A stretch of DNA of 16,707 nucleotides from a virus (lineage: Duplodnaviria; Heunggongvirae; Uroviricota; Caudoviricetes), in IMG/VR virus record IMGVR_UViG_2547132418_000023, one strand, 5' to 3'. The position numbers and the translations under genes are program-made. Under the pieces are notes generated by a model. It ran no database searches. It had not been told where the DNA came from and saw only the letters and a list, made by a program, of their open reading frames with translations. Below are positions 1 through 4,482 of this stretch, in pieces. Within the stretch, counting starts at the first letter, position 1; each line of letters begins with the position of its first letter.

Positions 1-765
1 ATGCGCGAAAGGGTATCGCAGCAGTTAAAAGAAATTGAACGGCGGTATGATGTGAAAGTATTGTACGCCTGTGAATCAGGGAGTCGCGGTTGGGGATTTG
101 CCTCGCCCGACAGCGACTACGATGTACGGTTTTTGTATGTTCACCCGCTGGAATGGTATCTGCGAGTAGAGTCACCGCGCGATGTTATCGAGCTGCCCAT
201 CGATGACGAGTTAGATGTTTCCGGTTGGGAGTGGCGTAAGGCGCTGGGATTATTGAAAGGCGCGAACCCGACGCTGATAGAATGGCTGGATTCTCCGGTG
301 GTCTATCAACAAGATGAAGAAACGATAACGGCGCTTAAGGCAATGGTCCCAACGTGGTTTTCTCCGCTGCGTGCGCGCTGGCATTACTATTCGATGGCGC
401 AGAAAAACTTCCGCGGATATTTGCAGGGCGATGAAGTTCGACTGAAAAAATACTTTTACGTGCTGCGCCCGCTGCTGGCCGTTCGTTGGGTTGAAGCGGG
501 AAAAGGTGTACCGCCAATGCGTTTTTCCGAATTGCTGGCGGGAAGTGAGTTGGATGCGGCATTACGCGCAGAAATAGATGAATTGCTGGAGCGTAAACAG
601 CGTGCGGGTGAAGCGGAATATGGACTGCGCCGTCCTTTGTTACATGCGTTTATTCGTGCGGAACTGGCGCGCGGGGAAATTCCTCCGCTGTTACCAGACA
701 GCCGGGAAGGGGACGTTAAAGAACTGGATAGTTTACTGTACCAGACGGTAATGCGCCGGGCGTGA
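1..765 (+). CDS. Nucleotidyltransferase-fold protein (Pol-beta superfamily), 254 aa; 5' end coincides with the window edge so the true start may lie upstream
   Basis: ATG at position 1, TGA at 763-765. N-terminal motif GSRGWGFASPDSDYDV fits the nucleotidyltransferase signature hG[GS]-x(9-13)-DhD. Convergent to the tail operon. Confidence 0.6.
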   Translation: MRERVSQQLKEIERRYDVKVLYACESGSRGWGFASPDSDYDVRFLYVHPLEWYLRVESPRDVIELPIDDELDVSGWEWRKALGLLKGANPTLIEWLDSPVVYQQDEETITALKAMVPTWFSPLRARWHYYSMAQKNFRGYLQGDEVRLKKYFYVLRPLLAVRWVEAGKGVPPMRFSELLAGSELDAALRAEIDELLERKQRAGEAEYGLRRPLLHAFIRAELARGEIPPLLPDSREGDVKELDSLLYQTVMRRA

Positions 766-781
766 AGCCCGGCGTTATTTT
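754..781 (+). terminator. Rho-independent terminator for the nucleotidyltransferase gene, sitting between convergent genes
   Basis: Perfect 8-bp stem CGCCGGGC (754-761) / GCCCGGCG (767-774), 5-nt loop GTGAA, followed by TTATTTT. The stop codon lies in the loop. No U-tract in the minus orientation. Confidence 0.55.
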
Positions 782-1235
782 ACGGCTGATATTGCCAGCT
801 ACTGACTAAAGCGTACAAGTGGTTTGGGGAATAGCGCCAACTCTCCTTTAATTGCAGAAATTCGGCACAAAATTCGCTGCAAAACAGGCGTTCACGCTGT
901 TCTTTATTACCGGTAATAATTCCAAGCGCGCCGCGCCAATCATATTTTTTGCCATCATGTTTATGGAAAAACGCTTCCACGTCCTGAAGGCTGGCCTGGA
1001 GCGGCAGCATATCCCACTTATCCGCTGGCAATGGCATTATCTTTCCGCGTACACCGCGATCGCGCAGTGATGCAGAGTAACAAAGGTAACTCTTTTCACC
1101 ATGCTTAACGGCTAATTCACAGTGGGAATAACTACCGCGCGTGATTTTACGGGTAAGCCAGTCAGCCAGTCGGGCAATACCACGGTGCTCTGTTCGGCCC
1201 TTATAACAAGCGAGCCAGACAGTGGTTTTACTCAT
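780..1235 (-). CDS. Putative permuted papain-like amidase (YiiX/YaeF-like, NlpC/P60 superfamily), 151 aa, translationally coupled to the upstream fibre chaperone gene
   Basis: ATG at 1233-1235 overlaps the upstream stop (ATGA). Motifs YSHCE, GKKYDW and FCSEFC resemble the His-before-Cys arrangement I recall for YiiX-family proteins. Recalled from memory, not searched. Confidence 0.4.
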   Translation of the reverse strand: MSKTTVWLACYKGRTEHRGIARLADWLTRKITRGSYSHCELAVKHGEKSYLCYSASLRDRGVRGKIMPLPADKWDMLPLQASLQDVEAFFHKHDGKKYDWRGALGIITGNKEQRERLFCSEFCAEFLQLKESWRYSPNHLYALVSSWQYQP

Positions 1236-1846
1236 GCTTGCCAGCCTGTTGAATAATCGTAGTCGAGCACCGCCTGAATATCGTCCAGAGCTTCCACCGC
1301 CGCGATATGGTGCTGGGCATTGGCGAACAGGCGCATATCGTGATCCATTGTTACCGATTCAAACTGGGCGGCGATCTCGTTGGTTAACTCGATCAGACCG
1401 TTATTTTTAGTTTTCCACATTAACCCTGGAGGGATTTTTTTCTCCGCTCCCATTTTTGTGAGTGAGAGCTGTTGGATACGGCTGTTTGTATCACTGTGGA
1501 AGTGATGGTTGTTGATGATGATGTAATCGGTTGTGACGTAATCCCGTTTGGATTTTATTCTTCTTATTATATCCGCTTTTATTTCTGAAATAAATTTAAG
1601 CATTGAATCTGTATCAACTATCCATTCTCCTTTTTTTAGTTTGTGAAATCTATCTGGTGGTGGCGTAGAGATAAAGGATAAATCTTCACAGTTAATCCAA
1701 ATTGGGATATTAGCTTTCGCATATGTCTGCCATTGCTGATCAGTTATTTCAACTAAATGTTCTACTTTAGGATAGTTGTAGTGTTCTGTATCGATCCAGT
1801 CCAGAACGATAAATGTTTCAGGATCAAAACAAGCATATTTTGTCAT
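1232..1846 (-). CDS. Putative tail fibre assembly/chaperone protein, 204 aa
   Basis: ATG at 1844-1846, immediately downstream of the fibre gene. Its 5' half shares the low GC (about 25-40%) of the fibre tip. It lacks the C-terminal EWP motif I recall for lambda/P2 Tfa, so the call is mainly positional. Confidence 0.5.
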   Translation of the reverse strand: MTKYACFDPETFIVLDWIDTEHYNYPKVEHLVEITDQQWQTYAKANIPIWINCEDLSFISTPPPDRFHKLKKGEWIVDTDSMLKFISEIKADIIRRIKSKRDYVTTDYIIINNHHFHSDTNSRIQQLSLTKMGAEKKIPPGLMWKTKNNGLIELTNEIAAQFESVTMDHDMRLFANAQHHIAAVEALDDIQAVLDYDYSTGWQA

Positions 1847-1852
1847 TTTTAA

Positions 1853-3847
1853 TTACCATGATATTTTTACGAAGCCAGAGGCACCTTTTGTTCCGCTAGT
1901 ATTGCCTAAATTTGTTAACTCATTATTTTTATATTGAAAAGGAGGTAAATAAGATCCCCCAGCTCCTCCAGAACCATAACCTGTTGCTGCTGTTGGCTTT
2001 GCCATTACTGCTTTTTTTCCACCATTACTTAGGTTTTCTGTAATAACAGTACCTGAAGCCCCTCCCTTTCCATATATAGAATTTTCACCATTCTTTCCAG
2101 GATAAAATTCTGCAGATGACGGTATTGCATTTGGTGGAGTACCTTTAGGATCGTCACTGAATTTTATATAAGGCTGCGTAGTGTTAGAGTGATAAATGTT
2201 ATATCCTCCATGGCCACCTTTTGCAGTTAGATTAGAAAACGAAGAGTCTCCACCATCAAAGCTTTTTTGTGTTGTCTCTGTTTTATCATACGAATACTTT
2301 ATTTGTGAAACAGGTGGATTGTTCCAAAAAGGACCTCCATTACCTCCAGCTCCGATCTTTACTGAAAAATGCTGGCCTGGTGCCACGTTTAAGTAATCAA
2401 CAATCAATTCTCCTGCATTACCTCCGCAGGCTTCATAATGTGATGATTGTGCTCCTCCGGCCCCCCCACCTCCGCCGCCCATAATTTCCACAAATAATAT
2501 TGTTACGCCCTCAGGAACTATAAATGTTCCATTTGTAGTATAAAAACTAGTGTGGGTATGATTAGCTGGAGCTGCAGTTTTTGCCTTATCCATTGCCGCC
2601 TTCACCGCGCTCGGTGTCGCCGCCTCCGTCGTACTGTTGCTATCCGTCGCGTTATTAAGCTTCACAATCCCTTTTTGCGACAGGGTGCCGTCTGGAACAC
2701 CCGTAATCTGTCCCCATGGGTGAGTATGGTTTCCCGCAGCCTTACTATTCGCCAGGTCATATGCCGCCTTCACCGCGCTCGGTGTCGCCGCCTCCGTCGT
2801 ACTGTTGCTATCCGTCGCGTTATTAAGCTTCACAATCCCTTTTTGCGACAGGGTGCCGTCTGGAACACCCGTAATCTGTCCCCATGGGTGAGTATGGTTT
2901 CCCGCAGCCTTACTATTCGCCAGGTCATATGCCGCCTTCACCGCGCTCGGTGTCGCCGCCTCCGTCGTACTGTTGCTATTGGTCGCGTTATTAAGTTTCA
3001 CAATCCCTTTTTGTGTCAGGGTACCGTCAGGAATACTCGTAATCTGCCCCCAGGGGTGCGTATGACTACCCGCAGCCTTACTATTCGCCAGGTCATACGC
3101 CGCCTTCACTGCGCTCGGTGTCGCCGCCTCCGTCGTACTGTTGCTGTCTGTCGCGTTATTAAGCTTCACAATCCCTTTTTGTGTCAGCGTACCATCTGGT
3201 ATATCAGTAATCTGACTCCAGGTATGACGATGATTTCGAGCCTCAATCATTGCCGCTTTCACCGCTTTTGGCGTAGCCGCTTTGGTTTCGTCATCACTGT
3301 CAGTGGCGTTACTCAACTGTGTAAAGCCTTTTTGCGTTAACGTAGCATCAGGATGATTAGTCGAACGCTCATGTTCATCCAGTTGTGAATCAACATAATC
3401 CCGTGTTGCCAGTACAATACTGGGGTCAACGGTGAGTGTTACCGCAGTCGTGTTGGAAACTTCCATAATCAGGCGAATGCAAACTTGCTTACCGCTGCCG
3501 CCGGGTAATAGTGGTTTATACGACTCCGGGAATTTACCGATAGCAATGAGTTCACCATCGGTATCAAAAACGCCGACTTCACGTACATACCAGCCGCCGA
3601 TATTTTCGGGCAGCACGAGTTCCGCAATTAACCAGTTAGGGTTATTGGGTGCAACTGTTAATGTATTTAAATCACCGCGCCATACTTCATGGCGTAATTT
3701 AGTTTGGCTGACGGTGGGTTCATAATATTGTCCTCCGCTGTCACCAACAGCCATTTTTTGTAGATGAAGCTGTTTTTTATCCGCCAGAGCATTGGCAATT
3801 TTTGCCATTCCCCTGTCGGTGAGTAGAGTATAAAACTCATTGTCCAT
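1853..3847 (-). CDS. Tail fibre protein, 664 aa: P2 gpH-like N-terminal domain, 56-aa repeat shaft, glycine-rich C-terminal tip
   Basis: ATG at 3845-3847 with GGAG 6 nt upstream. The N-terminus (EVWRGDLN, IAELVLPENIGGW, ESYKPLLPGGSG, ATRDYVDSQLDEHE, HPDATLTQKGFTQLSNATDS, ATPKAVKAA) matches my recollection of P2 gpH. Repeats of HTHPWGQIT..PDGTL.QKGIVKLNNATDSNSTTEAATPSAVKAAYDLANSKAAG follow. C-terminus carries GGGGGGAGG, GAGGNGG, GGHGG, GSGGAGGS motifs. Confidence 0.9.
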   Translation of the reverse strand: MDNEFYTLLTDRGMAKIANALADKKQLHLQKMAVGDSGGQYYEPTVSQTKLRHEVWRGDLNTLTVAPNNPNWLIAELVLPENIGGWYVREVGVFDTDGELIAIGKFPESYKPLLPGGSGKQVCIRLIMEVSNTTAVTLTVDPSIVLATRDYVDSQLDEHERSTNHPDATLTQKGFTQLSNATDSDDETKAATPKAVKAAMIEARNHRHTWSQITDIPDGTLTQKGIVKLNNATDSNSTTEAATPSAVKAAYDLANSKAAGSHTHPWGQITSIPDGTLTQKGIVKLNNATNSNSTTEAATPSAVKAAYDLANSKAAGNHTHPWGQITGVPDGTLSQKGIVKLNNATDSNSTTEAATPSAVKAAYDLANSKAAGNHTHPWGQITGVPDGTLSQKGIVKLNNATDSNSTTEAATPSAVKAAMDKAKTAAPANHTHTSFYTTNGTFIVPEGVTILFVEIMGGGGGGAGGAQSSHYEACGGNAGELIVDYLNVAPGQHFSVKIGAGGNGGPFWNNPPVSQIKYSYDKTETTQKSFDGGDSSFSNLTAKGGHGGYNIYHSNTTQPYIKFSDDPKGTPPNAIPSSAEFYPGKNGENSIYGKGGASGTVITENLSNGGKKAVMAKPTAATGYGSGGAGGSYLPPFQYKNNELTNLGNTSGTKGASGFVKISW
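2594..3265. repeat. Tandem 168-bp direct repeats (4 copies, units starting 2594, 2762, 2930, 3098; degenerate 5th about 3251-3340) inside the fibre gene
   Basis: TGCCGCCTTCACCGCGCTCGGTGTCGCCGCCTCCGTCGTACTGTTGC recurs at an exact 168-bp period. Copies 1 and 2 are nearly identical, later copies progressively diverged. In-frame, encoding 56-aa repeats. Confidence 0.85.
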
Positions 3848-3849
3848 AA

Positions 3850-4482
3850 TTACTCCGGGTAAATAGATGTAATTTCAAGGCTCCATTGCCCTGTTCCGTA
3901 ATAAATCGATGTGTTGTGCTGTACTTCCCGTATCTGGAAAGGTAAAACCGTCGTCAGTTCACCACCATAAAGTGCACAGCCAATAACAGGAATAGCACTT
4001 TGGTTAATGATCCAGACGATTAATGCTTCCAGTTTTGAACGTGTGTTTTTATATTCATGAATGAGTTCTACCAAATCATTGAAAAGGTTTTCATCCAGGC
4101 CTTTATCCACCAGCGCTATATCCACCTTAAAAAAATAAGCCCTTCCCCCATATTCAAACCATTCTGAAATAGTTCCTGGTAATGAGAGTATTTCCAGCAC
4201 CCGCCGCACCGCCCAAATTGTTCCTTTATATTTATGCAGTTCAATGGCTTGTTTAATTAACTCGCGTTTCTCCCGCTCATCGGTGGTAAATAACCAACCT
4301 TCCAGCCCCTGAACGTGAAATTGTTCTGCAAGGGCTGGTAATGCCGAAGCATCAACCTGGTCGATCAGATAAACCATCAACGCCGTCAGATCGAGTTGGG
4401 CAAAACGCTCGGCGGCGATATTTGCCAGAATCGAAAAACGCTCATCGCTGGCAAGCGGCGGCGGTGGCAGCAATTTATCCAT
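3850..4482 (-). CDS. Baseplate/tail protein, P2 gpI-like, about 210 aa
   Basis: The ORF-track start at 4497 is TTG; in-frame ATG at 4480-4482 (MDKLLPPPP...) overlaps the gpJ stop by 8 nt. Positioned between gpJ and the fibre as in P2 J-I-H. Confidence 0.7.
   Translation of the reverse strand: MDKLLPPPPLASDERFSILANIAAERFAQLDLTALMVYLIDQVDASALPALAEQFHVQGLEGWLFTTDEREKRELIKQAIELHKYKGTIWAVRRVLEILSLPGTISEWFEYGGRAYFFKVDIALVDKGLDENLFNDLVELIHEYKNTRSKLEALIVWIINQSAIPVIGCALYGGELTTVLPFQIREVQHNTSIYYGTGQWSLEITSIYPE

Follow-up and report, generated by a model that had tools for sequence, protein, structure and literature searches.

Permuted members of the NlpC/P60 group keep proving to be lipid or acyl-transfer enzymes. 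MARTX RID is a lysine fatty-acyltransferase, and LnsA, from the LnsAB system of Staphylococcus aureus, is a secreted YiiX-like permuted NlpC/P60 protein containing a Cys/His dyad; together with a membrane CPBP partner protein, it moves the sn-1 acyl group of phosphatidylglycerol to lipoproteins. Tox-Act1 and TseH, permuted NlpC/P60 proteins of the type VI secretion system, are phospholipases, and LRAT/PLAAT proteins are acyltransferases or phospholipases (PMC12994826). YiiX (PDB 2if6) and BcPPNE (PDB 3kw0) belong to PF05708 and MEROPS C92; a fatty acid was present in the crystals of YiiX and lysine in those of BcPPNE, and four catalytic residues of permuted enzymes were defined in the same work (Xu et al. 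2011, PMC3142127). Here we describe a phage-borne relative in IMG/VR record IMGVR_UViG_2547132418_000023, referred to below as the window (16,707 nucleotides in full). The gene, at positions 780-1235 on the minus strand, encodes a 151-residue permuted NlpC/P60 (YiiX-like) thiol enzyme and directly follows the gene for a tail-fibre assembly chaperone. Our favoured reading, with a probability of roughly 0.55, is that the product is a soluble, cytoplasmic, late-expressed permuted-papain thiol enzyme that serves as an accessory to the fibre-assembly module and acts on an acyl group. It represents a known kind of enzyme in a new, phage-specific variant; the fold itself is unsurprising, and the striking feature is its coupling to fibre chaperones.

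A sequence-only reading of this DNA had likened the product to YiiX/YaeF-type permuted amidases on the basis of three motifs, His before Cys. All three were found in the translation: YSHCE at residues 36-40, GKKYDW at 95-100 and FCSEFC at 118-123. An alignment of 36 homologues revealed Y36-S37-H38-C39-E40, S56, V62-R63, K65, W74, Y98, C119-S120 and P137 as invariant positions. In a wider set of 149 sequences, consisting of the window protein and 148 representatives (one per 50%-identity cluster), conservation was 100% for His38, Trp74, Tyr98 and Cys119, 99% for Glu40, 97% for Ser56 and Arg63, 96% for Ser37 and 93% for Asp59. Lack of conservation of the predicted His and Cys had been named as part of what would refute the assignment; both were retained in 149 of 149 sequences. 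The minus-strand codons lie at 1122-1124 for His38, the predicted general base; at 942-944 for Tyr98, the predicted oxyanion/P1-carbonyl tyrosine; and at 879-881 for Cys119, the predicted nucleophile. His38 precedes Cys119, as expected of a circularly permuted enzyme. Binding of a metal by the Cys-rich motifs (C39, C119 and C122) was considered and rejected, given that Cys39 and Cys122 vary across the wider family.

The suggested profile search against the YiiX/YaeF family uncovered homology at the profile level. Comparison of the family with a YiiX profile (24 orthologues, all with PF05708) by hhalign gave a probability of 95.3% and an E value of 2.4e-8, pairing His38 with His49, Tyr98 with Tyr115 and Cys119 with Cys128; in BcPPNE, His38 aligns with His49 and Cys119 with Cys154. 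Family profiles searched against the PDB reached 3kw0 (E 1.4e-4 to 2e-4) and YiiX (E 0.016). The GKKYDW motif corresponds to GKPYDF of YiiX, the site of the catalytic tyrosine, so that the conserved tyrosine that forms the fourth catalytic residue has an invariant counterpart in Tyr98. His38, Tyr98 and Cys119 are thus three of the four catalytic residues of permuted enzymes (Xu et al. 2011, PMC3142127). Ser37 and Asp59 are the counterparts of BcPPNE Ser48 and Asp68, which hold the bound lysine. Structure prediction with AlphaFold2 from the alignment returned a confident model (predicted local distance difference test 86.7, predicted template modelling score 0.85) in which a five-stranded sheet is followed by helices. 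Amphipathic helices at residues 20-32 and 100-108 are visible in its secondary structure, and Cys119 begins the helix at 119-126, a placement that comes from the model. The PPNE core fold likewise has its multi-stranded β-sheet subdomain ahead of a helical one and places the Cys at the N terminus of a helix. The named fold matches were permuted papain-fold proteins, the closest being YiiX and 3kw0, and matches to CHAP or PlyC-type folds were marginal. From these alignments and the model, it is very probable that the protein adopts this fold and is catalytically competent.

The protein nevertheless differs from the two structural representatives, to which it is 18-20% identical. At 151 residues it is 35-60 residues shorter than YiiX and BcPPNE (186-214 residues), and relative to them it adds the invariant Trp74 and the near-invariant Glu40, Arg63 and Lys65. 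YiiX and BcPPNE are chromosomal housekeeping genes, whereas the enzyme gene resides in phage tail modules. The YiiX family is exported by means of a signal peptide, and a signal-like hydrophobic N terminus was present in 66 of 72 YiiX orthologues; the enzyme has none. Its hydropathy peaks at 0.69 (the 15-residue Kyte-Doolittle maximum) and it contains no hydrophobic segment. The lack of an export signal or hydrophobic segment argues for a cytoplasmic location. A profile search of 1.84 billion representative proteins retrieved 4,621 clusters (50% identity) at E<=1e-3 and 1,983 at E<=1e-10, and the best 150 matches were nearly all stand-alone proteins of 132-190 residues. The search defines a family of ~4,600 clusters within the permuted NlpC/P60 group. 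The earlier fold assignment to the YiiX/YaeF type therefore holds, although the protein is not a member of PF05708; these comparisons support a separate family of soluble, putatively cytoplasmic, phage-borne enzymes that has no Pfam model and lies nearest to the YaeF/YiiX branch. Informative domain fusions were sought in the longer family members, and only extensions of the open reading frame (ORF) call or read-through were found. One of these longer proteins, P0205 (227 residues), is extended at its C terminus by a segment that includes a lipobox-like sequence, LALAGC; the segment is probably a neighbouring gene fused to it, possibly through read-through into a spanin-type lipoprotein gene or possibly as a true fusion.

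The family is matched by PHROG 1128 (E 3.8e-58, residues 1-150), and gp51 of phage SuMu is 43% identical to the window enzyme. A precomputed Pfam domain was found in 0 of 91 homologues, and single-sequence scans of the enzyme against NCBIfam and PADLOC returned nothing useful; matches to NCBIfam YdaE (E 0.075), metallothionein and zf-FCS were dismissed as low-complexity noise from the Cys motifs. The name that the family carries in databases is "enoyl-CoA hydratase". This identity was rejected, as the window protein and its relatives showed no crotonase/enoyl-CoA hydratase match in Pfam and no crotonase fold occurred among the named fold matches; the present assignment corrects a widespread misannotation. 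A gene of the same name was among the accessory genes tied to clinical isolates in an association study of Haemophilus parasuis (PMC4532294). In that study the gene is most likely a sign of a prophage and not of lipid metabolism.

In the mechanism that we propose, His38 would activate Cys119 for attack on a carbonyl held by Tyr98, and the acyl-thioester formed on Cys119 would then undergo hydrolysis or transfer to an amine acceptor. If LRAT/PLAAT, LnsA, Tox-Act1/TseH and MARTX RID are a guide, the acyl group more likely belongs to a fatty-acyl amide or ester, or a similar compound, than to a peptide of peptidoglycan. All permuted relatives characterised so far work on acyl or lipid groups, and a fatty-acyl-type substrate is the likely choice; taken by itself, the specific proposal of an acyl or lipid substrate is one that we hold tentatively, at slightly under even odds. 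Its site of action might be the cell that makes the particles, while tails are being assembled, or envelope material once lysis has released the enzyme. With LnsA there is already a case of an enzyme that depends on a partner encoded alongside it. Tox-Act1 and TseH are delivered periplasmic toxins with immunity proteins, whereas the enzyme gene has neither an immunity partner nor a delivery domain, and LRAT/PLAAT and picornavirus 2A H-NC proteins, which are eukaryotic or viral, stand much further from the enzyme and are marked by an NCEHF motif and a membrane anchor.

The sequence-only reading had offered, as one option, a cell-envelope hydrolase carried with the fibre. The corresponding explanation is a particle-borne peptidoglycan hydrolase on the fibre or baseplate that cuts the target wall as the phage penetrates, like the NlpC/P60 and CHAP enzymes of Gram-positive phages. 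The enzyme does fall in the NlpC/P60 superfamily and is co-expressed with the fibre and chaperone, and a docking route is conceivable, since some Tfa chaperones stay bound to the fibre (PMC7882524). Canonical NlpC/P60 or CHAP lysins, however, have the order Cys-then-His and a wall-binding or docking domain, whereas the enzyme has the order His-then-Cys and consists of one 151-residue domain that lacks any docking or additional module. Its relatives showed no informative fusion with a structural protein. Characterised members of the permuted type act on lipids or acyl groups, and their hydrophobic S1 pocket is unsuited to peptides. Tail lysins are located in the hub or tape measure and not after the chaperone, and the cluster already has a lytic transglycosylase. 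The text of the paper on SuMu virion proteomics is silent on gp51, and its data are too sparse to speak to presence in the particle. Given the permuted type and the missing docking domain, a peptidoglycan hydrolase is unlikely here, and the enzyme is probably not a receptor-specific or wall-cutting tail lysin.

The favoured reading also rests on the layout of the locus. As claimed from the sequence, the enzyme gene overlaps the stop codon of the chaperone gene: the ATG occupies 1235-1233 and the chaperone TGA 1234-1232, forming an ATGA start/stop overlap on the minus strand (tcat on the plus strand at 1232-1235) of the kind associated with translational coupling. A promoter scan detected no minus-strand promoter-like site for the enzyme within the upstream chaperone gene. 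The overlap and the lack of a promoter-like site of its own suggest that the enzyme is expressed late and coupled to the chaperone. Homologues of the enzyme numbered 91, with E values down to 1e-100, and the ratio of nonsynonymous to synonymous substitution rates was 0.03-0.10 against orthologues from E. coli, Salmonella and Enterobacter, which by sequence comparison marks the ORF as a genuine gene under purifying selection. The upstream gene (1232-1846, minus strand; 204 residues) had been called a fibre chaperone gene, and a Pfam match to DUF4376 (E 4.6e-13) bears this out. Alteromonas phages V22 and A5 have tail-fibre chaperones with a DUF4376 domain (PMC10579305), and the Campylobacter CJIE1 fibre is functional only when co-expressed with its downstream gene, which carries the same domain (PMC7882524). 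The match, together with the occurrence of the domain in experimentally required chaperones, makes the label a fair one. Next upstream, at 1853-3847 on the minus strand, is the tail fibre gene, whose product has an N-terminal collar-fibre domain, five fibre repeats and a glycine-rich tip (Pfam Phage_tail_fib and Phage_fiber_2 matches; PF12571, PF03406 and PF21722).

The linkage recurs well beyond the window. Among 5,426 complete E. coli genomes, the enzyme gene is present in single copy in 203, always beside a DUF4376 gene, and the C-terminal part of the chaperone occurs in 210. E. coli 40EC carries a second, unrelated type of prophage in which a fibre gene and a DUF4376 gene are followed by a 51%-identical enzyme paralogue with the same 4-nucleotide overlap. 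IMG/VR contains at least 530 relatives, and 78 of the best 80 loci, those in which the ORF could be called, were examined. In 73 of the 78, a same-strand upstream ORF ends -8 to +11 nucleotides from the start of the match, and the exact 4-nucleotide overlap was found in 36 of the 78. The upstream ORF encodes ~155-270 residues in all but two of the 73 loci; 68 of the upstream proteins could be reached from the window chaperone by iterated profile search, and 23 representatives comprised 12 with DUF4376, 5 with Caudo_TAP and 6 with no Pfam match. SuMu has the order fibre, assembly protein, enzyme gene (gp51; locus L002, 5944-6465), com and methylase. In Pm86, the enzyme gene overlaps its upstream ORF by 4 nucleotides and precedes the tape measure gene, and Acidovorax AP1 has an assembly protein gene, the enzyme gene and a holin gene in succession. 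Comparable gene orders were found in Moraxella Mcat phages, including Mcat2, and in Pseudomonas vB_PstS-pAN. The enzyme gene lies between the fibre genes and the sheath gene in a P2-like metagenomic module, and follows a 2,486-residue fibre-like protein and a small ORF on another contig. One IMG/VR contig (3300008717_000135; loci L074, 4317-6465, and L078, 4268-6492) carries two baseplate-fibre modules in tandem, ~7.4 kb apart and separated by a Dam-like methyltransferase gene. Both modules encode a fibre with a collar domain, a Caudo_TAP assembly protein and a copy of the enzyme, and the two enzyme copies are 85% identical.

The claim that the enzyme gene is the last of the operon was correct for the window, where it is followed by the convergent RlaP gene and a GC-rich hairpin, and does not extend to all relatives. 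In 40EC, the paralogue (locus L091, 351-3495) is followed by three co-oriented genes, one of the HP1 ORF34 baseplate type and two without a Pfam match (289 and 548 residues), so the gene is not always terminal, and in other relatives tail or lysis genes come after it. This placement bears on the explanation that the gene is unrelated cargo (a moron) at a favoured site behind the fibre module, with a lysogenic-conversion, toxin or immunity-like function that benefits the host. Here the site after the fibre-assembly gene is the end of the element, and many provirus calls stop right after the enzyme gene. PHROGs places the family in the category "moron, auxiliary metabolic gene and host takeover", and distant members lie outside tail modules. 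We know of no copy of the enzyme gene in phage Mu or P2, in keeping with an accessory nature. Yet the gene lacks both a separate promoter and an intergenic spacer, the overlapping (36/78) and abutting (73/78) arrangements recur across loci, and the gene sits inside the tail operons of Pm86, Mcat2 and E. coli 40EC. It occupies the same site in Mu-like, P2-like and apparently non-contractile (siphovirus-like) phages of Gamma- and Betaproteobacteria, with three classes of chaperone, and it has no partner immunity gene. The PADLOC scan found nothing. Independent cargo is therefore a rather improbable account of the gene.

The mosaic structure of the locus separates the enzyme from receptor choice. 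The GC content of window positions 1351-2550 is 34-42%, compared with 50-57% in the flanks, and this low-GC minus-strand segment, which spans the fibre tip and the N-terminal domain of the chaperone, differs among related loci, while the fibre N terminus, the chaperone C-terminal domain and the enzyme are retained. Across 14 related loci, identity of the enzyme to the window copy (75-100%) tracks that of the C-terminal 100 residues of the chaperone (79-100%), and the chaperone N-terminal domains and fibre tips are mostly unrelated or weakly similar. From GC content and identities across loci, the segment at 1351-2550 resembles a swapped host-range cassette, one of whose breakpoints falls within the chaperone gene. 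The enzyme gene lies in the constant flank of this cassette and is compatible with many fibre tips, which argues against a receptor-specific role. Receptor destruction and self-immunity were considered and are disfavoured, because near-identical enzymes accompany unrelated tips.

Strict gene order, coupling and co-inheritance with the constant C-terminal domain of the chaperone could fit a maturation protease that trims the fibre or frees a chaperone cap after trimerisation, and the papain-like catalytic set is intact. DUF4376 chaperones can be transient caps (PMC10579305). This explanation is difficult to reconcile with at least three unrelated chaperone C-terminal domains (DUF4376, Caudo_TAP and an unclassified type) that have no evident cleavage site in common. 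The DUF4376 and Tfa systems that have been studied work without such a gene, and permuted members are not known proteases. We consider proteolytic maturation improbable.

A further explanation is an isopeptidase for counter-defence that would strip ubiquitin-like or other host modifiers from fibres in the cytoplasm. Ubiquitin-like tagging of central tail fibres provides a precedent for a deconjugase. The known target, however, is the central fibre of siphoviruses and not the side fibres of Mu-like tails. The closest structures, YiiX and 3kw0, are not deconjugases, and this role appears very unlikely. A separate, bolder reading would make the family a dedicated enzymatic partner of fibre chaperones. 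In one version the enzyme would fatty-acylate or de-acylate a lysine or the N terminus of fibres or chaperones, and in the other it would strip ubiquitin-like or acyl host modifiers off fibres as a counter-defence. Such a dedicated partnership is a speculative idea of low probability; if true, it would add a new enzyme-dependent step to the making of infectious tails and tailocins.

The favoured reading, an accessory of the fibre-assembly module that acts on an acyl group, is proposed on three grounds: the enzyme is produced jointly with fibre and chaperone, it shares the inheritance of the chaperone C-terminal domain, and it is indifferent to the fibre tip. Several observations weigh against it. 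The window protein had zero Pfam matches at E<=1 in a single-sequence scan, and PF05708 was matched weakly by 1 of 36 and 6 of 149 relatives, with a best E value of 1.6e-4, below the gathering threshold. The acid that orients the His in YiiX and BcPPNE, Glu64, is replaced: it aligns to Ala55 or Ser54, where the family has Ser or Ala, so that the enzyme could be less active or act differently. The role of the missing triad acid might fall to the near-invariant Ser56 or Glu40, and PPPDE1 and LRAT tolerate loss of the third triad residue (Xu et al. 2011, PMC3142127). Distant members of the family occur outside tail modules, in Ralstonia jumbo phages and on a contig where the gene follows a ribonucleotide reductase gene. 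The enzyme gene is missing from many phages whose fibres and chaperones are similar, which indicates that it is dispensable for assembly as such, and the tight linkage may reflect co-inheritance at a cassette boundary or a favoured insertion site and not a common function. In our estimate, a functional tie between the enzyme and the fibre module has a somewhat better than even chance.

Fibre modules are the part that is swapped when phages and tailocins are retargeted, and in the current model a fibre and its chaperone suffice. Hundreds of tail modules, Mu-like, P2-like and apparently siphovirus-type, have a conserved enzyme that is co-translated with the chaperone, which suggests a missing accessory step or a form of protection. 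Where tailocins are engineered, such a step could make a difference to yield or activity.

The window derives from the E. coli chromosome and is 99.3% identical to strain D7 and others. The cluster consists of head-less, Mu-like contractile-tail genes inserted between lysC and yjbD, in the order Mor activator, holin, lytic transglycosylase, gp37-like, sheath, tube, tape measure, baseplate, fibre, DUF4376 chaperone and enzyme, an architecture that is tailocin-like. A literature search found no paper on this E. coli tail cluster or on the protein family of the enzyme. The hairpin between the convergent RlaP and enzyme genes (753-775, plus strand) scores in a terminator scan as the terminator of the plus-strand RlaP gene; it is the sole hairpin 3' of the enzyme gene, and from its position it is taken to mark the end of the tail operon. 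A slipin-family gene and the gene for the RlaP-type (RNA-repair-associated) nucleotidyltransferase run convergent to the operon (window 1-765, plus strand; locus L001, 16841-18765). Window positions 1-4000 match 1,632 genomes, mostly in part, at 90-95% identity; this number implies that some of the query is far commoner than the tail cluster, probably the slipin/RlaP gene pair. The fibre encoded at 1853-3847 has 664 residues here and 608 in strain D7 and in IMG/VR locus L005, whose fibre is identical to that of the window over the N- and C-terminal segments compared; the two lengths are consistent with differing numbers of the ~40-residue Phage_fiber_2 repeats.
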